DNA from: an uncultured SAR86 cluster bacterium
Lineage (GTDB): Bacteria > Pseudomonadota > Gammaproteobacteria > Magnimaribacterales > D2472
Assembly: GCA_902610905.1 (NCBI GenBank)
Contig: CACLXS010000001.1
Span: 6,079 to 70,078, forward strand
Length of the DNA stretch: 64,000 nt
Direction: 5' to 3'
In this document: positions 17,076 to 37,364 of the stretch, piece after piece
How the letters are laid out: each line of letters begins with the position of its first letter
Position numbering within the stretch: position 1 is the first letter of the stretch
Position numbers and translations under genes: made by a program
The notes under the pieces: model-generated
What the model was told of the DNA's origin: nothing
Database searches by the model: none
The model's input: only the letters and a program-made list of their open reading frames with translations

Positions 17076-18866
17076 ATGGATATAAATAAGTTAAGAAATA
17101 TTGCAATCATTGCCCATGTTGATCATGGCAAAACAACTCTTGTTGATAGGCTTTTACAACAATCAGGCACATTGGATAGAAAGAATATGGATTCTGAGAG
17201 AATTATGGATTCCAATGAACAAGAAAAAGAGAGAGGTATCACAATTACAGCAAAAAATACCTCTATAAATTGGAATGATCATTTAATAAATATTGTTGAT
17301 ACTCCAGGACATGCTGATTTTGGAGGAGAGGTTGAAAGAGCTCTTTCTATGGTTGATTCAGTATTGCTGCTTGTTGACGCAGTCGACGGTCCTATGCCCC
17401 AAACACGATTTGTGACACAAAAGGCTTTTGAAAAAGGATTAAAGCCTTTAGTAGTTATAAATAAAATTGATAGGCCAGATGCAAGGCCTGACTGGGTGTT
17501 AGATCAAGTTTTTGATCTATTTGATCGTCTTGGTGGAACTGATGAACAATTAGATTTTCCAGTTATTTATACCTCTGCAATTGAAGGGATTTCTGGTCTT
17601 GAGTCTGATCAAATGACTAGCGATATGAAACCATTAATTGAAATGATAATTGAAAAGGTTCCTGCACCAGAAGTTGTAAAAAATGCTCCTCTTCAATTAC
17701 AAATAAGTGCATTAGATAGCAATAGTTATGTTGGTGTAATAGGTATTGGAAGAATAAAACAAGGCTCAGCAAAACCAAATGATCAGGTATCTATTATTAA
17801 TAGGGATGGCGAAATAAGAAAAGGTAAAATTCTTCAAGTAATGGGATATATTGGTCTTGATAGGGTTGAAGTAACAAAAGCTGAAGCTGGTTCAATAGTC
17901 TGCATTACTGGTATCGATAAGCTCAATATTTCTGACACGATTTGTGATCCCATGAACGTTCAGTCACTACCTCCTCTTTCTGTTGATGAACCAACAGTAA
18001 GTATGACTTTTCAAGTAAATGATTCCCCTTTTGCAGGCCGTGAAGGTAAATTTGTTACGTCTAGAAACATAAAAGAAAGATTAGAAAAAGAGTTAATCTC
18101 AAATGTTGCACTAAGAGTTGCTCAAGGAGATAGTCCAGATAAGTTTATTGTGTCTGGTCGAGGTGAACTCCATTTATCAGTATTGATTGAAACTATGCGA
18201 AGAGAAGGTTTTGAGTTAGCTATATCTAAACCACAGGTGGTTCAAAAGAATGTTGGAGATGAGATACATGAGCCGTTTGAACAAATTGTTATTGATGTTG
18301 AAGATATACATCAGGGATCTGTAATAGAAGAACTTGGCCCAAGAAAAGCAGAGCTAAAAAAAATGGAACCAGACGGCAAAGGAAGAGTAAAGTTAGAGTT
18401 TATAGCACCTTCAAGGGGCATTATAGGCTTCAGGTCACATTTTTTAACAATTACTAGCGGCACTGGGATTATGACAAGCGTATTTGATCATTATGGACCA
18501 GTAAAAACTGGTGAAATTGCAAAAAGAACTAATGGTGTTATGTATGCTATGACAGCAGGAAAGACTTTAGCTTATGCTTTATTCAATCTACAAAATCGAG
18601 GGAAGCTATTTCTTGGTCATGGTCAAGAAGTTTATGTGGGTCAAATTGTAGGCTTACACTCAAGAGACAATGATTTGCCAGTCAATCCTACAAAAGCAAA
18701 ACAATTAACTAACATAAGGGCTGCTGGAACAGATGAAAATTTAATTCTAGTTCCTCATATAAAACATACTTTAGAGCAAGCTTTAGAGTTTATAGAAGAT
18801 GATGAGTTGGTAGAGGTTACTCCTGAATCTATTAGATTGCGAAAAAAGGGAAAAGTAAGAACCTGA
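17076..18866 (+). CDS. typA: Translational GTPase TypA/BipA
   Basis: [18 protein letters not shown] and NKID G-motifs; 596 aa with EF-G-like domains. Confidence 0.95.
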
Positions 18867-31182: not shown

Positions 31183-32028
31183 TTAAAATCGCTCCTTTTT
31201 TCTTGTGTTGGGCGGACCAAAAAATAAATATAAAGAGTGTGATAGGCTTTTTGATTGTTTAATATCATCTAAAATTTCTTTCCACCCCATAAATGTTATT
31301 TTTACAGGGTTATATGTATTAACATTTTTTACTAGGCCAAATCTTACTGATTCTTTTTCAGACTCAAAAGTTCCAAACATTCTGTCCCAAATTATTAAAA
31401 GATTCCCATAATTTTTATCTATATATTGTTCATTAGCTCCATGATGAACTCTATGATGTGAGGGGGTGTTAAAGATCCATTCCAAAGGTCCAAGTTTATT
31501 AATAATTTGAGTGTGTCCAACAATGCCCCATAGTGTGCTTATAACACCTGCGATTGCAATAATTGTTGGGTCTAAACCAATCAAAGGTAAAATAATAAAA
31601 AAAGGTATTTTTGAAATAGGCCCAAACCATGCCTGCCTAAAAGAGACTGCAAAGTTCATCTCTTCGCTTGAGTGATGACTCATATGAATTGCCCAAAGAA
31701 ATCTAACCCTGTGCGACATTCGATGATAAATATAAAAAACAAAATCTATTAAGACAAAGGTCAAAATCCAGTTTATCCACAGAGGAATCTCTTGAAATAT
31801 GTCGAAAAGCTTATATTGGAAAACATAGAAATGAAGCGCTAATGTTATGCCTTTGAAAGCATAAACCATTGTAATGTTGCCAATTAGTAGACCAACGGTA
31901 CATAAAGTATCGCCCTTGGTGTAATAATATTTTTTGTTCCAGTTAGAAGCTATAACTTCAACCAGTATCATTAAAAGAACTATAGGAACTCCTACTGCAT
32001 ATACTTGGTTATAAGTTATATCTGTCAT
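31183..32028 (-). CDS. Fatty acid hydroxylase / sterol desaturase superfamily membrane oxygenase (second copy)
   Basis: His boxes HRMSH, HMSHH and HHRVHH. The start overlaps the upstream VOC gene by 4 nt. Confidence 0.85.
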   Translation of the reverse strand: MTDITYNQVYAVGVPIVLLMILVEVIASNWNKKYYYTKGDTLCTVGLLIGNITMVYAFKGITLALHFYVFQYKLFDIFQEIPLWINWILTFVLIDFVFYIYHRMSHRVRFLWAIHMSHHSSEEMNFAVSFRQAWFGPISKIPFFIILPLIGLDPTIIAIAGVISTLWGIVGHTQIINKLGPLEWIFNTPSHHRVHHGANEQYIDKNYGNLLIIWDRMFGTFESEKESVRFGLVKNVNTYNPVKITFMGWKEILDDIKQSKSLSHSLYLFFGPPNTRKKERF

Positions 32029-32864
32029 GTATGCTGTATTAATAAGGTGGGTACATTGTGTGTGTGGGATTTTAATGTTGCAACCATTGTATTTTCTTTA
32101 ATGCCTTTTTTAATAGGTGTAATTTCTACGCCGGCTTTTTCAAGTCTAGAATGAGCTTCTTTAATGTTATCAACCTCCCATGAAAGTCCCCATAATGAAT
32201 CTTTTGGTTCTTCATCATTTTTCTTCTCTAAAACTTCAATTGTTGTCTTATTGAATCGAAAAAATAGCATTCTGCTCTTCCATTCATCAACAAATTTATC
32301 TAAAGCAAGTCTTATATTAAAAAAATCTCTATAGACTTCAATAAATCCATCTGCATCGTTTGTAGTTATAACAACATGATCTAAATTATTTACCATTGAG
32401 GACTCAAATTTATTTGTAATTGGTAGGTTTCCTTCTGTATGTTCAATTAAAAAAGAAAATATACCTCTTGTGAGCTCTGGTGGCAAAAACAGATTCTTCC
32501 ACTTCCTAATTTTATTATTTTTTAAATTTGCGCCCTCTCCAAAAGAAATATCGCCTAAAGGAAAGCCTTTTTTAGAAAGTTTTTCGTAGGTTTCTTTTAA
32601 ATTATCTGTTCCAAAAACTATTCCTATGAGACCTTCTCCAGTTTCTTGCAAGGCATGGTTGACTAGGGCAGCACCCAAACCCTCACCCTTTGCAGCTAAA
32701 AGTTCAAAATAGGTATTATTAAAATTAAACAAAGAATTTTCAGTACCATATTCTGTATGTTCCCCTCTCCATACAGGATCTATTCCAAAGACTTTGGAAT
32801 AGTTTTTTTCAGCTTCATTAATGTCAGAAACAGCGACTATCAAATGATCCAGAGTTTTTATCAT
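32025..32864 (-). CDS. Two-domain VOC family protein (glyoxalase/dioxygenase fold)
   Basis: LDHLIVAVSDINEAEKNY and a second LDHVVITTND module; 279 aa. Confidence 0.7.
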   Translation of the reverse strand: MIKTLDHLIVAVSDINEAEKNYSKVFGIDPVWRGEHTEYGTENSLFNFNNTYFELLAAKGEGLGAALVNHALQETGEGLIGIVFGTDNLKETYEKLSKKGFPLGDISFGEGANLKNNKIRKWKNLFLPPELTRGIFSFLIEHTEGNLPITNKFESSMVNNLDHVVITTNDADGFIEVYRDFFNIRLALDKFVDEWKSRMLFFRFNKTTIEVLEKKNDEEPKDSLWGLSWEVDNIKEAHSRLEKAGVEITPIKKGIKENTMVATLKSHTHNVPTLLIQHT

Positions 32865-32907: not shown

Positions 32908-33060
32908 TTAAAGCTGCAATATTTTTTTAAGCGTCATTAGTGATGATGAGGCCAGAATAACTAATAAAAGTATAGCAAGCCGCTTTTCATCAACCAGTAC
33001 ACTCACAATTATTGCGGCCGCCCACATAATTGATTGAGAAATGATTAATTTATTATTCAT
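32908..33060 (-). CDS. Hypothetical 50-aa two-TM peptide (below the ORF-track cutoff)
   Basis: Hand-translated as MNNKLIISQSIMWAAAIIVSVLVDEKRLAILLLVILASSSLMTLKKILQL. Its ATG overlaps the stop of the upstream methyltransferase (tATGAATAA). Confidence 0.35.
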   Translation of the reverse strand: MNNKLIISQSIMWAAAIIVSVLVDEKRLAILLLVILASSSLMTLKKILQL

Positions 33061-33781
33061 AATTTTTTCCTTTAAATTTTCTTTTATATAACCTTTCTAA
33101 ATTTCTAATCTTTAACCTCCAATATCTTTTTTGGCTTATTTTACTTTTTTCAATTTCACTAATTTTTTTTAAATTTTCAGAAATTTTAAAGTCAACTTCA
33201 CTATCATCTTTTATGGCAAACCAACTAGGATATTTACAAAAACCTGATGACTCAGTTCTATCGGTGATAAACAGCTTAAGATTGCTTTGCTTTATAAAAT
33301 CATTCACAGCCCACTTAACTAAAGGCCAGTCGTCATGATAATCATCCCCAGCGATTATTCCTCCAACTTTACATTTCTTATACCATTGTAAAATGGTTTC
33401 TCCACCTTCTTCACCAGTATGAGCGTATCCATCTATGTATATAAAATCAAAATGATTGTCTTCAAACAAATCATACGCATCATCAAAAGTCATTCTTAAC
33501 AAATGATAGTTTTCATGAATACCGACGTTGCTTAATGCGTATTTATATTCGTTAACATCATGGATATCGTTATAAACGTCTACACCATAAAATTTACTAA
33601 ACTTCTTTGTCTGTATCATTTTTTTAGAGAAATCGCCTCTTGCAACTCCTAGTTCAATCCCAATATTGTTTGTGCCGATCAAATCATTTACAACGTCATA
33701 TCTAACTGATCCAGTTATTTTTTCCGGAACTATTTTTGGAGAATTTTTTTCTGCGATTAATTTAATATCTTTTTTGTGCAT
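33053..33781 (-). CDS. Class I SAM-dependent methyltransferase (Methyltransf_24-like)
   Basis: GIELGVARGDFS motif I, FDFIYIDG, GGIIAGDDY. Confidence 0.7.
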   Translation of the reverse strand: MHKKDIKLIAEKNSPKIVPEKITGSVRYDVVNDLIGTNNIGIELGVARGDFSKKMIQTKKFSKFYGVDVYNDIHDVNEYKYALSNVGIHENYHLLRMTFDDAYDLFEDNHFDFIYIDGYAHTGEEGGETILQWYKKCKVGGIIAGDDYHDDWPLVKWAVNDFIKQSNLKLFITDRTESSGFCKYPSWFAIKDDSEVDFKISENLKKISEIEKSKISQKRYWRLKIRNLERLYKRKFKGKNYE

Positions 33782-33792
33782 AATTTTCTACT

Positions 33793-34080
33793 TTAGCTTA
33801 TCAGCTTAGGTATTATTCCTAGTTGAGCAAGAATGCCAAAAATAATTAGCAATATAATACTAGAGATTATTTTAAGATTCTTCTTTAGTATCCATTCAAA
33901 TAATTTATCTATTAATTTTCTTATCAATTTATCTGCTTTATCTATCCATATAACAGCTTTTCTTGTCCATGCGTCAGTCATATCGACTAACATGAGAAAG
34001 ATTACTGCGATAACAACCCACACAAAACCATTAAGAAGCATGTCTATAATCCAGCCTGCTGCTATCCAGTTTATTTCCAT
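33793..34080 (-). CDS. Hypothetical small membrane protein (95 aa)
   Basis: ORF with two or three hydrophobic segments. Confidence 0.4.
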   Translation of the reverse strand: MEINWIAAGWIIDMLLNGFVWVVIAVIFLMLVDMTDAWTRKAVIWIDKADKLIRKLIDKLFEWILKKNLKIISSIILLIIFGILAQLGIIPKLIS

Positions 34081-34144
34081 AATTGGATTATGACATAAGT
34101 TAAATTTGAGTTAGTAAATTCTATTCAACAGTAACAGAGTAGAA

Positions 34145-34324
34145 TTAACCCGACCCTTTTTCATTTTTATCATTTGGTTTTCGCCAACCCAGCGCTGCTC
34201 CAATTGCAACACCTACCGCTATCCAAACTGGTTCATTGGTTGTTGCAAAAACTGCTGCGCCTACCGCTGTACCAACACCAATCCAGTTTCCACCGTTTTT
34301 AGAATTCTTTAATCTGTTATTCAT
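34145..34324 (-). CDS. Hypothetical 59-aa glycine-zipper membrane peptide (below the ORF-track cutoff)
   Basis: Hand-translated as MNNRLKNSKNGGNWIGVGTAVGAAVFATTNEPVWIAVGVAIGAALGWRKPNDKNEKGSG. Contains GxxxG/A repeats and is locally GC-rich. Confidence 0.4.
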   Translation of the reverse strand: MNNRLKNSKNGGNWIGVGTAVGAAVFATTNEPVWIAVGVAIGAALGWRKPNDKNEKGSG

Positions 34325-34341
34325 ATTAAATAAACGCCTTT

Positions 34342-34355
34342 ATCTACTCCGCCGT
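34342..34355 (-). repeat. Degenerate third copy of the glmS 3' end (13/14 nt identical to copy A)
   Basis: ATCTACTCCGCCGT compared with ATCTACTCCACCGT at 35077-35090. On the minus strand it reads ACG GCG GAG TAG, versus glmS ACG GTG GAA TAG. Lies 16 nt after the CPBP stop. Confidence 0.4.
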
Positions 34356-34370
34356 AGCCTAATAAATTTA

Positions 34371-35045
34371 TCATGTTTTTCTGGTGTAGTAGGAAACTGT
34401 TCCAGAATATACATCCATAAATATGTGAGCAATTATAGCCACTACTATACTTTCAAAATATAAATATATTCCACACAGCAAAACGCCTACTAGGGTAGTT
34501 TTAATTACATGTTTCCAACCTAGATAAAGGTGCCAAAGGCCAAAAACAAAACTACTAAAAATAACTGCTATCACCCAATCAGACTGAATTTCTATATAGC
34601 TATAAAGAAACCAGCGAAAAATTAACTCTTCGCATATTCCAGCCGAAACGGATACAAGTAATGTGAATAATAAATATTCTTTATAAGACTGGGGCAATAT
34701 ATCAATTAGCGAATTATCTTTTTCTAAAGTATTTAAAACACTAAGCCTAATATTTTCATTTTTTTTGATAGAGAAAATCACGTATTTGGTATACGCAAAA
34801 CATGCAATAAATATAGATACTGATAAGTAAGTTTTCCAATCAGTTGCTGGCAAAATGGGGGGAGGCTTAACAGTTAATGCGCCTTGAAAAAAACAAAATA
34901 GTAAAAAACCTGTCACAGCCCACAACATTAAAGATGTTTTTATATATTCTGAACTTTTAGTTTTGAATTTATATTTTTCCAAGACTAAATCAGCTACTGG
35001 AAAGAGTAACAATAAAGATAGTAATAAGTACTCCAAAAATTCCAT
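34371..35045 (-). CDS. CPBP family intramembrane glutamic endopeptidase (CAAX protease / Abi-type)
   Basis: ICEELIFRWFLY (EExxxR), FGLWHL and IAHIFMD motifs. Confidence 0.8.
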   Translation of the reverse strand: MEFLEYLLLSLLLLFPVADLVLEKYKFKTKSSEYIKTSLMLWAVTGFLLFCFFQGALTVKPPPILPATDWKTYLSVSIFIACFAYTKYVIFSIKKNENIRLSVLNTLEKDNSLIDILPQSYKEYLLFTLLVSVSAGICEELIFRWFLYSYIEIQSDWVIAVIFSSFVFGLWHLYLGWKHVIKTTLVGVLLCGIYLYFESIVVAIIAHIFMDVYSGTVSYYTRKT

Positions 35046-35077
35046 AAGCTAATTACTCAATTGGAAATGATATCAAA

Positions 35078-35099
35078 TCTACTCCACCGTGACTGACTT
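35078..35099 (-). repeat. Direct repeat copy A: displaced copy of the last 22 nt of glmS, including a stop codon
   Basis: TCTACTCCACCGTGACTGACTT is 21/22 identical to 35537-35558. The minus strand reads AAG TCA GTC ACG GTG GAG TAG (KSVTVE*). Confidence 0.8.
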
Positions 35100-35104
35100 G
35101 AACA

Positions 35105-35116
35105 AAACAGTGATTT
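35105..35116. repeat. Inverted repeat, left arm (AAACAGTGATTT)
   Basis: Exact reverse complement of 35522-35533. Lies 5 nt inside direct repeat copy A. Confidence 0.7.
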
Positions 35117-35131
35117 GATTTCTCTTTCATT

Positions 35132-35506
35132 TCAATCTATTGAAATACCAATTTTTTGTCTTGCTAGTGTGTTATTTTCTTCAGAATCGTTTAAAGACCA
35201 TGACTCATTAAGCATTCTGGTTGAATACTGCTTGTTGTATAAGAAAGGCATTATTAATTGGAATAAACCAAAAGTGACTAAAGAGAAAATCAAATGAAGC
35301 ACGCCAATTAATATTTCACCTCTAAAAATAGGCACAAAAAAACCAAAGAAGAAATAAGTCCATGAATATCCAACAAAACAGTTTTTAAGTATGCCAGATT
35401 CATTGTGTTTTACTTTTATTTTCTTCTGCCATCCCATAACCATGCTGCCAATTATTAATGGTGAAAAAATTATTACTAAAATTATTAATAATATTAATAT
35501 TTCCAT
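35132..35506 (-). CDS. Small membrane protein (124 aa; DUF2628-like core suspected)
   Basis: AGGAG RBS (minus-strand AAAAGGAGAAAATAATG). GYSWTYFFFGFFVPIFRGE...NKQY pattern; 3 TM segments. Confidence 0.6.
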   Translation of the reverse strand: MEILILLIILVIIFSPLIIGSMVMGWQKKIKVKHNESGILKNCFVGYSWTYFFFGFFVPIFRGEILIGVLHLIFSLVTFGLFQLIMPFLYNKQYSTRMLNESWSLNDSEENNTLARQKIGISID

Positions 35507-35521
35507 TATTTTCTCCTTTTT

Positions 35522-35533
35522 AAATCACTGTTT
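35522..35533. repeat. Inverted repeat, right arm (AAATCACTGTTT)
   Basis: Exact reverse complement of 35105-35116. Lies 3 nt inside direct repeat copy B. Confidence 0.7.
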
Positions 35534-35536
35534 CCT

Positions 35537-35558
35537 TCTATTCCACCGTGACTGACTT
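35537..35558 (-). repeat. Direct repeat copy B: the functional glmS 3' end (KSVTVE*)
   Basis: TCTATTCCACCGTGACTGACTT; see copy A. Confidence 0.8.
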
Positions 35559-37364
35559 AGCTAGATTTCTTGGTTGATCTATATCTGTTCCTCTTAAAAG
35601 GGCAACTTCGTATGAAAGAATTTGAAGTGGGATGTTATAAACAATTGGCGTCATAAAGAAATCACATTCAGGCATATGGACTAGTTTTCCAGATTTAACA
35701 TCTATATTTACTGAAGGATCGGCACAAACATAAAGAGTTCCACCTCTTGCTTTCACCTCTTCAAGGTTAGAAATTAATTTCTCTGCTATTTCACTTTCTG
35801 GTGCTAATGCTATAACTGGCATGTTTTCATCTATTAATGCAAGCGGGCCGTGTTTTAGCTCACCAGCAGGGTAAGCTTCAGCATGAATGTATGAAATCTC
35901 TTTGAGTTTTAGTGCGCCCTCTTTGGCAATAGGATAAAAAATACCTCTACCCAAAAATAAAGCATTATTTTTATTGGCAATATTTGGGGCTATCTCAATC
36001 ATTTGATCTTTAGAATTTAAGGCTTCTGCTATAGTCTCAGGCAACAGTCTTAATGCCTGAACAATTCTACCCCTAAGTTTTGGGTTTAGCCCTCTGCTTT
36101 TTGCAAGTGATAATGCAAGTAACATCAATCCTGCCAATTGAGTCGTAAAAGCTTTAGTTGAGGCAACACCTATTTCAGGGCCCGCATTAGTAAATAGTGA
36201 AAAATCCGACTCTCTGGCTAAAGAACTTGTTGGTACGTTGCAAATAGTGAGTGTAGAAAGATACTCTTTTTCTTTTGCATAGTTTAATGCAGCCAGCGTA
36301 TCAGCTGTTTCACCTGATTGAGAGATTGTAATTAATAACGAATTTTCATCTACATGTGGATTTCTGTATCTATACTCACTAGCGTAATCAATCTGGCATG
36401 GGAGTTCTGCTATTGATGAAAACCAATTGGCAGCAACTCTTCCTGCATGCAGGCTTGTTCCACATGCAACTATTTGAATACGTTTTACTCTAGAGAATAA
36501 GTCGGTGGAACCTAGACCAAAAATATTATCTAGAACATCTTCACCACCGATTCTTCCGTCTATTGTTTTTGAAACAGCTTCAGGTTGTTCGTATATTTCT
36601 TTCTCCATATAATGTCTGTAGTCACCTTTTGAAGTTGCTTGAGCTGATATATCTATACAAGTGATTTCTCTTTTAGCTTCAATTTTAGATTCATCAAAAA
36701 TTTTATAGCTATTAGCAGAGATCTCTGCCACATCACCGTCTTCTAAAAATATAAAATCATTGGTGTGTTGAGCTATAGCAAGCGGATCTGAAGCTGCAAA
36801 CATTTCATCGGTTCCTATTCCTATTAATAGAGGTGACTTATTTCTTGCTATAACCAAATTAGTACTATCTTTTATATCAATAGCTGCGATTGCATATGCT
36901 CCTTCAAGTTTTTCTTTTGCTGAATACATTGCATCAATCATTGACTGACCTTGGTTGATATATAGATCAAGCAAATGAGCGATTAGCTCTGAATCTGTTT
37001 GAGATATAAATTCATAACCATCATTCTTAAGATCTTCTCTAAGCTCAACATAATTTTCAATAATGCCATTATGAACGATATAAACTGAATCTTTGGATTT
37101 ATGAGGATGGGCATTAATTTCTGATGGCTCTCCATGTGTTGCCCATCTTGTATGAGCAATACCTAATTTACTTTTTGGTTTTTCAGCAATCATTTTTTCT
37201 TCAAGGAGTTGAACTTTTCCAAGAGTTCTAAGATGAGCTATACCATCATCTTGATGAAGAGCAATGCCTGCTGAGTCATATCCTCTATATTCCATTTTGT
37301 GTAGTCCCTGGACTAAAAGCTTGCCAACATTTCTATTTGAGGCAGCAGCTATAATTCCACACAT
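35538..37364 (-). CDS. glmS: Glutamine--fructose-6-phosphate aminotransferase
   Basis: MCGI N-terminal nucleophile, two SIS domains, C-terminal KSVTVE; 608 aa. Confidence 0.97.
   Translation of the reverse strand: MCGIIAAASNRNVGKLLVQGLHKMEYRGYDSAGIALHQDDGIAHLRTLGKVQLLEEKMIAEKPKSKLGIAHTRWATHGEPSEINAHPHKSKDSVYIVHNGIIENYVELREDLKNDGYEFISQTDSELIAHLLDLYINQGQSMIDAMYSAKEKLEGAYAIAAIDIKDSTNLVIARNKSPLLIGIGTDEMFAASDPLAIAQHTNDFIFLEDGDVAEISANSYKIFDESKIEAKREITCIDISAQATSKGDYRHYMEKEIYEQPEAVSKTIDGRIGGEDVLDNIFGLGSTDLFSRVKRIQIVACGTSLHAGRVAANWFSSIAELPCQIDYASEYRYRNPHVDENSLLITISQSGETADTLAALNYAKEKEYLSTLTICNVPTSSLARESDFSLFTNAGPEIGVASTKAFTTQLAGLMLLALSLAKSRGLNPKLRGRIVQALRLLPETIAEALNSKDQMIEIAPNIANKNNALFLGRGIFYPIAKEGALKLKEISYIHAEAYPAGELKHGPLALIDENMPVIALAPESEIAEKLISNLEEVKARGGTLYVCADPSVNIDVKSGKLVHMPECDFFMTPIVYNIPLQILSYEVALLRGTDIDQPRNLAKSVTVE

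Follow-up and report, generated by a model that had tools for sequence, protein, structure and literature searches.

Several described systems gather foreign genes at one address of the chromosome, and we compare four of them here with an array of small cassettes behind glmS in an uncultured bacterium of the SAR86 cluster, one of the most abundant bacterial groups of the surface ocean (assembly GCA_902610905.1, contig CACLXS010000001.1, positions 6,079 to 70,078 of the forward strand; this whole stretch of 64,000 nucleotides is called the window, and coordinates given without a contig refer to it). The staphylococcal cassette chromosome (SCC), with SCCmec and the composite and pseudo-SCC islands, is inserted by a large serine recombinase (LSR), CcrAB or CcrC, into the last codons of a housekeeping gene, at the 3' end of rlmH (orfX), and the gene end is restored; direct repeats of this gene end flank the units, which form tandem arrays where units devoid of recombinase are presumed to be mobilised in trans. 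Each of these traits has a counterpart, seen or presumed, in our array. The differences lie in the target (rlmH there, glmS here), in the size of the units (20-60 kb there, here mostly single genes of 0.15-2 kb) and in the hosts, which are here streamlined marine Gammaproteobacteria. Integrons are alike in that a chromosomal platform stacks small, co-oriented, apparently promoterless cassettes of a single open reading frame (ORF), each with its own imperfect palindrome, in that the newest cassettes are nearest to the platform and in that the pool of cassettes is common to different lineages. Their enzyme is however a tyrosine recombinase, whereas a serine recombinase is proposed here; our site is a double-stranded dyad, split between the two ends of the cassette and presumably cut at its centre, an essential gene serves as the platform with its last codons, and the recombinase is not resident. 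In Dehalococcoides, tandem islands with repeated ssrA 3' ends are associated with a serine recombinase (PMC3146451). These islands resemble our array in the class of enzyme, in their tandem insertion where an essential, single-copy gene has its 3' end, and in the direct repeats left there, but their target is an RNA gene, and therefore without mimicry by codon wobble, and they are multi-gene islands with a recombinase of their own. Tn7 also takes the universally conserved end of glmS, attTn7, as a safe harbour, with a recognition which tolerates changes at wobble positions, but it is a TnsABCD transposon inserting downstream of glmS with a 5-bp duplication, while we propose a reciprocal exchange within the last codons. 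Our literature searches found no published description of a cassette system at the end of glmS.

We consider it highly probable that positions 34121-35557 are occupied by three non-autonomous mobile cassettes, which were placed into the last codons of glmS by site-specific recombination of the LSR type. They belong to a cassette-stacking system which is found across the SAR86 order and which is most likely run by an LSR.

The array behind glmS in the window

The host genome (1.02 Mb, 32.6% GC, 78.6% complete) has the atp operon and glmU upstream of glmS in the window. The features of the locus are listed below; the two halves of a core are given from left to right along the minus strand.

35538-37364, minus strand: glmS, 608 aa, from the list of ORFs
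35538-35557, minus strand: joint 1, attL-type, core AGTCAGTCAC followed by GGTGGAATAG, central AC at 35548-35549
35089-35547, minus strand: cassette 1, mobile unit of 459 nt, with a 124-aa membrane protein (TM124) at 35132-35506
35079-35098, minus strand: joint 2, or copy A, core AGTCAGTCAC followed by GGTGGAGTAG
34354-35088, minus strand: cassette 2, 735 nt, start arm ATTTGATATCATTTCC at 35063-35078, end arm decayed
34371-35045, minus strand: CPBP/Rce1-like intramembrane protease, 224 aa (Pfam PF02517, E 1.8e-20), cargo of cassette 2
34344-34363, minus strand: joint 3, or copy C, decayed, TAGGCTACGGCGGAGTAG in the register of the core, 3 mismatches to the consensus
34131-34353, minus strand: cassette 3, 223 nt, with a 59-aa Gly-zipper peptide (34145-34324) and the end arm AAGGGTCGGGTTAATT
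34121-34140, minus strand: joint 4, intact core ACTCTGTTACTGTTGAATAG, final joint of the array, directly after the stop of the 59-aa gene
33793-34080, minus strand: 95-aa membrane protein (MEINW...), conserved distal flank of the array
32908-33781, minus strand: methyltransferase (242 aa; Pfam Methyltransf_24) and 50-aa transmembrane (TM) peptide, outside the array

Copy A (35078-35099) is identical to the end of glmS (35537-35558) at 21/22 positions, a match which never occurred in 100 shuffles, and it reads K-S-V-T-V-E-stop. A model which had seen only the letters of the window and their ORFs (the sequence-only reading) had reported a third, decayed copy, copy C, at 34342-34355 (ATCTACTCCGCCGT), identical to copy A at 13/14 positions; both the position and the match are confirmed. 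When the live glmS end is the sole query of a genome scan, as this reading had proposed, copy C stays within the background, but it is recovered at rank 4 by an nhmmer profile built from 83 cassette joints of other genomes, the copies of the window being excluded. Searched against the whole 1.02-Mb genome, this profile has only four matches with E<0.3, all on the minus strand and all within the array: copy A (5e-6), the copy at 34112-34159 (4e-5), the glmS end (5e-5) and copy C (0.23), for which the chance expectation is about 2e-4 when scaled to the 1.4-kb array and to one strand. The sequence after copy C (ATAAAGGCGTTTA) is homologous to a recurrent start arm, ATAAAGGTGTCTA, which follows intact cores elsewhere. 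Translated, joint 3 gives T A E stop, unlike the intact S-V-T-V-E-stop cores.

The central idea of the sequence-only reading, that of a serial array on the 3' end of a protein-coding gene with a glmS-end scar after each unit, is correct, while its inventory has to be amended. Besides the glmS end and copies A and C, which stand, there is one intact scar which it had missed, at 34121-34140; and it had counted as cargo, together with the 124-aa, CPBP and 59-aa proteins, the 95-aa TM protein, the methyltransferase and the 50-aa peptide. These last three genes are not bounded by scars, since from 34121 down to 18 kb there is no joint-like match above shuffled controls. Hence the array is made of three cassettes only, those of TM124, of the CPBP protease and of the 59-aa peptide (34121-35557). 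The 95-aa gene belongs to the conserved flank: in at least 12 genomes, it comes next after the final core (G001, G012, G020, G021, where the site is empty, G023-G026, G028, G034, G036 and G017).

Joint 1 is composed of a left half from glmS and of a right half from cassette 1. The final 11 nt of glmS (GGTGGAATAG and the preceding split) are, by all appearances, contributed by cassette 1, because GGTGGAATAG accompanies the TM124 cassette in other contexts too. This cassette starts with the arm AAGGAAACAGTGATTT at 35522-35537, followed by a ribosome-binding site (RBS) and by the 124-aa ORF, and it finishes with the arm AAATCACTGTTTTGTT at 35101-35116 and with a left half-core; the two arms are reverse-complementary at 13/16 positions. 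In joint 2, likewise, the left half is that of cassette 1 and the right half that of cassette 2, and the pairing of TM124 with the CPBP protease recurs on 3 further contigs. The end arm of cassette 3 is of the class gggtggggtaagaac, which is recurrent in many arrays and matches the arms of a recombinase element, P0043. Most differences between the core of joint 4 and the end of glmS are in wobble bases. We also noticed that the CPBP protease and the 59-aa peptide (34145-35045) are separate cassettes across the decayed copy C and yet co-occur on the few contigs which have this CPBP.

Cores, arms and the point of exchange

The core has 20 nt, A.TC.GT.AC.GT.GA.TA., and encodes SVTVE-stop, the wobble bases being free. 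We examined 20 relatives belonging to the same genus and family and found 2-10 further copies of TCN GTN ACN GTN GAR TAR downstream of glmS; when one mismatch at most is allowed, this motif matches the forward strand 92 times and the reverse strand 0 times in 21 loci downstream of glmS, and the A two bases upstream of it is invariant in 71/71 copies, though it was absent from the search pattern. The exact 20-nt pattern, ANTCNGTNACNGTNGARTAR, occurs about 115 times in 61 whole genomes of the SAR86 order, as against 0 for a reversed control pattern. Nearly all these copies are clustered behind glmS and on its strand, in all four families sampled. The exceptions, two copies in G054 and one in G037, lie on other contigs and are likely to come from arrays split by assembly; a second array site away from glmS, considered for contig C2 of G054, was discarded, as we read it as an assembly break within the array. 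Among glmS loci from outside SAR86 (Methylophaga, Flavobacteriia and others), the core is present at glmS itself only, bar one contig with a single extra copy, and two pattern scans of viral contigs for core and arm gave no match. On L200 (7544-10228), a metagenome contig from a gammaproteobacterium which is not of SAR86, two copies of the glmS end enclose a single unit of 2.6 kb, which points to the same type of insertion outside SAR86. The cargo of this unit consists of ORFs of 133 and 138 aa, which by eye resemble a nucleotidyltransferase/HEPN toxin-antitoxin pair, and of two coiled-coil membrane proteins, with no recombinase.

The 84 arrays which we analysed, some of them on metagenome contigs, yielded 183 cassettes of 138 sequence families. 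The layout of the cassettes is constant: directly after the core comes a start arm (e.g. GTTTAAACAGTGATTT), then an RBS and usually one ORF, and the unit closes with an end arm (AAATCACTGTTTAAAC), which is separated from the next core by four variable bases. They have a median length of 562 nt; 68% of them hold a single ORF of at least 40 aa, and 84% of the coding residues are on the strand of glmS. The bias of the cargo towards small membrane proteins, noted in the sequence-only reading for this one locus, holds for array cassettes in general: the median length of the proteins is 137 aa, against 273 aa genome-wide, and by a crude hydropathy test a hydrophobic TM-like segment is present in 52% of them versus 30% in the genome or, among proteins of at most 130 aa, in 65% versus 26%. 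We scored the pairing between arms as follows.

Start arm and end arm within one cassette: mean score 9.1
Facing arms on the two sides of a joint: mean score 5.6
Random pairs of arms: mean score 5.6

The start and end arms of one cassette are thus complementary, which means that a circularised cassette would hold an imperfect palindrome of about 54 bp centred on the glmS-end mimic. The empty site has the same form, as the coding DNA of glmS (CAACCAAGAAATCT) is mirrored just past the stop by a recurrent native arm, AGAAAGGTTTCTCGGTTG.

One and the same cassette family is found at different positions and with different neighbours, and we mapped the exchange on pairs of cassettes which are at least 88% identical and differ in their neighbours. 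The cores are chimeric: a cassette keeps the left part of its downstream core (A.TC.GT.AC), and likewise the right part of its upstream core (.GT.GA.TA.) together with the start arm. Going outwards, it is most often at the wobble base just beyond AC that the sequences of a pair first differ (9 of the 16 downstream junctions which remain identical up to AC, and 8/17 upstream ones), and the other junctions are compatible with chance identity or with a later mutation. The arms (-20..-6 and +19..+33, the T of TCN being 0) have their dyad axis between A and C of the Thr codon. An exchange at an invariant, non-palindromic dinucleotide in the centre of a long dyad site has the geometry of serine recombinases, and it would also explain the single orientation shared by all cores. 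The sequence-only reading had compared the locus with islands growing at the 3' ends of tRNA genes; the repeated insertion at a gene end is well captured by this analogy, but it implies tyrosine integrases, while the evidence favours an LSR which cuts at the centre of the scar.

The same reading had proposed two further checks, and both turned out in its favour. Relatives with a GlmS 96-97% identical carry 0, 2, 5 or 8 cassettes, so that the locus is not invariant. The scars also tend to diverge with the distance from glmS: the profile score of the joints drops in 24/31 arrays (rho -0.22, p 0.009 versus relative position), a trend which may partly reflect the arm-less last joint and which fits an entry next to glmS followed by ageing.

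Mobility of the cassettes and the associated recombinases

The identical 124-aa protein of cassette 1 was found in 180 blocks of a public sequence collection, and the 8 contexts which we read represent at least 7 different neighbourhoods. TM124 is the first gene behind glmS in L239, L240, L242, L243 and L244, the second in L236 and the seventh in L235; it follows a cassette with a 1044-aa methylase in L237, and a recombinase element plus a 59-aa cassette in L241. Its boundaries are constant in all contexts, with GGTGGAATAG (or a one-base variant) and AAGGAAACAGTGATTT before it and AAATCACTGTTTTGTTCA and AGTCAGTCAC after it, while the outer half-cores vary with the neighbours. In an assembled genome (L240, GCA_902547485.1), glmS, TM124 and the native arm follow each other as an array of one cassette, and this cassette is identical to ours. 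By the comparison of these contexts, cassette 1 is a mobile unit. In DNA unitigs from four marine metagenomes, the assembly stops at the cores, and the loose ends lead to alternative neighbours, among them the native arm; the Logan contigs show only these breaks and loose ends at the cores, and no joints indicating precise excision. Cassette 1 is also present in four metatranscriptomes, where one contig of 744 nt spans from inside glmS across the whole cassette. This is consistent with an expression of the cassettes by read-through from glmS, and the array is not enriched in sites which resemble promoters or terminators.

The enzyme can be looked for next to the sites. In G200, a genome of the family of the window, glmS is followed by an element of 6.0 kb as the first cassette, the arms of which are complementary at 15/16 positions. 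The last gene of this element, which ends 24 nt before the next core, encodes a protein of 551 aa with Resolvase (PF00239), Recombinase (PF07508) and Zn-ribbon (PF13408) domains. The nearest solved structures are those of the SPbeta SprA, TP901-1 and phiC31 integrases; no Ccr entry is among the PDB sequence matches of this LSR, and its orthology to Ccr was not otherwise tested. It has 376 homologues at E<=1e-10. When nine of them (35-72% identity) were read together with G200, a glmS-type core was found 5-61 nt past the stop in 10/10 cases, over a range of 35-97% identity for ten distinct homologues, and where the contig is long enough, in L228 (Porticoccaceae) and L231, glmS is at the other end of the element, as in G200. 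Identical copies of the recombinase P0039 are followed by three different cassettes, with a constant left half-core and different right halves.

All four types of site expected from such an enzyme can be pointed at. The empty site of G021 is an attB, the glmS-element junctions of G200, L228 and L231 are attL, and L258 and L246 show attR, where both the arm and the right half (TGTTGAATAA) are the native ones. Junctions of attP type are found in L255/L257, with arms complementary at 16/16 positions, and in L254, at about 14/15. L255, L257 and L258 belong to one metagenome contig of 16,130 nt, which contains 2.26 head-to-tail copies of a recombinase element of 7,143 nt; its internal junctions are of attP type and the last one is attR. 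Either the element has integrated there in several tandem copies, or the assembly has mixed its circular and integrated forms. Several arm classes of small cassettes are equal to the arms of recombinase lineages: gggtggggtaagaac is that of P0043, aattgtcgtttaaattt that of the L241 recombinase and gaaagaccgattaaactt that of G200. Recognition by these proteins would explain why the arms co-vary.

The recombinase-bearing elements, which we call driver elements, also share a small gene of the REP_ORF2-G2P type (similar to initiators of rolling-circle replication) near their glmS-proximal end, and conserved ORFs of 130 aa and of about 212-245 aa. They may replicate as small circles, possibly through single-stranded DNA. 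The REP_ORF2-G2P genes are the following.

L226 (G200), 17184-17645
L228, 3049-3579
L231, 5863-6324
L247, 8855-9277
L255, 5145-5621

Other enzymes were considered and rejected. The resident serine recombinases of G035, G007 and G018 are about 26% identical to the glmS clade and have no glmS cores nearby. The large ORFs (400-676 aa) inside cassettes are not recombinases, as they were judged by reading their sequences to be lipoprotein-like, MsrAB-like, etc. A transposase of the IS200/IS605 type (HUH), acting on hairpins, was dismissed with the absence of Y1_Tnp from 61/61 genomes. As for tyrosine recombinases, each genome has two Xer-like PF00589 genes of about 298 aa, far from glmS, and essentially nothing else of this class.

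The three resident enzymes form a second LSR clade of SAR86: L215 (G035:C1 250674-252236), L216 (G007:C2 322-1878) and L217 (G018). The last 20 or so residues of their C-termini (..LVELRGIEPRTPC..; ..GIEPRT..) resemble a translated tRNA 3' end, and a stretch matching this tRNA-like C-terminus is found in the genome of the window at C9:12320-12388. If this resemblance is genuine, it would mean that these LSRs belong to tRNA-targeting islands in which the ORF of the recombinase runs into the tRNA gene.

Proposed mechanism, rival explanations and neighbouring DNA

The mechanism that we propose is the following. A circular cassette would carry a site of attP type, namely the imperfect palindrome of about 54 bp made of the end arm, the 20-nt glmS-end mimic and the start arm. 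An LSR of the clade specialised in glmS, which for cassettes devoid of recombinase would presumably be supplied in trans, would pair this site with the end of glmS, cut both partners at the central AC of the Thr codon and swap the halves. After the exchange, glmS would end in the cassette's own ..V-E-stop, so leaving the enzyme intact, and the displaced half-site would come to lie at the end of the cassette away from glmS. Entry of new cassettes would be beside glmS, arrays would grow from this side and in a single orientation, and the cassettes would probably be read through from glmS. Such a scheme would account for a variation restricted to wobble positions, because the incoming cassette would supply the last 11 nt of glmS and only cassettes with ..V-E-stop would leave a viable host.

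Several observations weigh against this scheme. The genome of the window has 0 matches to PF00239, i.e. no serine recombinase, which implies that its cassettes are non-autonomous and that its array is currently passive. Serine recombinases are present in only 9/266 genomes of the SAR86 order, G035, G007 and G018 being three of the nine, and that of G200 is the only one to sit at glmS; among the 183 cassettes of glmS-anchored arrays, a phmmer search with LSR seeds, of limited sensitivity, found none. No LSR element was found with arms of the class of cassette 1 (AAATCACTGTT...). Circular forms of small cassettes were not observed, and the attP-type junctions which we did observe could come from tandem copies and not from circles. 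In a minority of junctions, the switch is located 3-6 nt rightwards of AC, which could be due to chance identity, to later mutation or to a staggered exchange. The RNA evidence consists of assembled contigs and may include DNA carry-over. Finally, reactions of attP x attL type are known for the staphylococcal Ccr, and the building of an array requires reactions of this type, whereas canonical phage LSRs recombine attP with attB only (PMC3783163).

The rival explanations have to be judged on the same evidence. Given that XerC/XerD-like genes are the sole recombinases in essentially every genome, the host XerC and XerD might move the cassettes, as they do for the integrative mobile elements exploiting Xer (IMEX) and the pdif modules of Acinetobacter, the glmS end and the start arm acting as a pseudo-dif. 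The stop codon and the start arm (RTARnTTyrAA) do match the XerD arm of the host dif (TTATGTTCAAT) at up to 8/11 positions, in a register where XerC cleavage would adjoin AC, and the few junctions which switch about 6 nt further right speak for Xer as well. In this register, however, the XerC arm has 3/11 fixed matches, and the axis of the 54-bp dyad, at AC, is 4 nt off the centre of the putative 6-bp Xer spacer; the cassette-specific arms of 16 nt are not explained by Xer, and a dedicated clade of LSRs adjoins the sites in 10/10 cases. We regard this explanation as very unlikely. (The likely dif of the host genome is ACTTCGCATAA TATATA TTATGTTCAAT, on the minus strand of contig C7 at about 39585.) Somewhat more credit, though still little, is due to the idea that only the LSR-bearing elements are mobile, and that the small cassettes are decayed relics reshuffled by homologous recombination through glmS, the flank and the 20-nt cores. 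SAR86 populations are indeed highly recombinogenic, as is known for streamlined marine bacteria, cassettes devoid of LSR far outnumber the LSR elements, and many of the small ones start with the conserved left end of these elements (...ctttcgttttaacctcgca). Against such relics stand the identical TM124 unit, with exact AC boundaries in at least 7 contexts, the concentration of exchange points at AC instead of a spread over the shared bases, and the retention of complementary start and end arms, which matter only in a circular or attP form.

An integron, or an array of the type of clusters of attC sites lacking an integrase (CALIN), with cassettes moved by a tyrosine integrase on folded attC, is brought to mind by the short, mostly single-ORF, co-oriented cassettes, each with an imperfect palindrome and no evident local promoter. 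In attC, however, the crossover lies between G and TT of the R' box, at one end of a site which is placed wholly at the 3' end of the cassette, while here the palindrome is shared equally between the two ends of the cassette and the crossover is central. Nor is there any IntI-like gene: the genomes have the two Xer-like genes of about 298 aa, and none is among the ORFs of the window at 22-35 kb. This leaves the integron with hardly any credibility, and we rate just as low a Tn7-like transposition into attTn7, or repeats due to chance or to regulation such as terminators. It is true that glmS is the classic target of Tn7 and that the locus of a distant relative, L248, has TnsA/TnsB genes after the LSR element. 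The junction is nevertheless inside the coding sequence, in the Thr codon, rather than about 23 bp beyond the stop, no target duplication of 5 bp is seen, and the window has neither Tn7 ends nor Tns genes (TniQ/TnsD HMMs were not run genome-wide). As to chance or terminators, the repeats are far beyond what chance would give and there is no excess of terminators.

Site-specific recombination of the LSR type, which we retain for the array of the window, leads to a wider proposition on which our opinion is evenly balanced. SAR86, and at least Porticoccaceae and other marine Gammaproteobacteria, would run a serine-recombinase counterpart of the integron, with the last codons of glmS as a docking and expression platform. 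There would be a large, ocean-wide pool of mostly single-gene cassettes devoid of recombinase and rich in small membrane proteins, each with a full attP-type dyad which also provides a replacement end for glmS. Their capture, stacking and shuffling would be the work of driver elements of 6-9 kb, rare and transient, and the arm preferences of the lineage-specific recombinases of these elements would define the classes of cassettes. SAR86 has tiny genomes and almost no mobile elements or recombinases, and such a platform, if real, would explain its flexible gene pool at a very low cost. It would also be a second, mechanistically independent solution to gene capture, based on a serine recombinase and not on the tyrosine recombinase of integrons. 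Its recombination site would be hidden in the wobble-free positions of the last codons of an essential gene, so that each insertion must rebuild this gene. As the target of the glmS-clade LSRs is conserved in most bacteria, these enzymes are candidate tools for safe-harbour integration at glmS.

Two observations remain to be reported on the DNA around such insertions. In L248 (Pseudidiomarina taiwanensis PIQG01000004.1, 10001-14708), a recombinase element of the glmS clade carrying a type I restriction-modification cargo is followed directly by Tn7-like tnsA and tnsB; this one locus appears to combine, one stacked on the other, two different mobile systems which both target glmS. The region between the 95-aa gene and a conserved glyoxalase/fatty-acid-hydroxylase pair (glyoxalase gene at 32025-32864 in the window) ranges among relatives from about 1 kb to 13 kb and varies greatly in content. 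There are no glmS-end scars in this stretch beyond the array (32908-33781 in the window, and its equivalents in relatives), and a different mechanism of turnover seems to be at work here. G017 has a homologue of the 50-aa peptide placed between the last core and the 95-aa gene.

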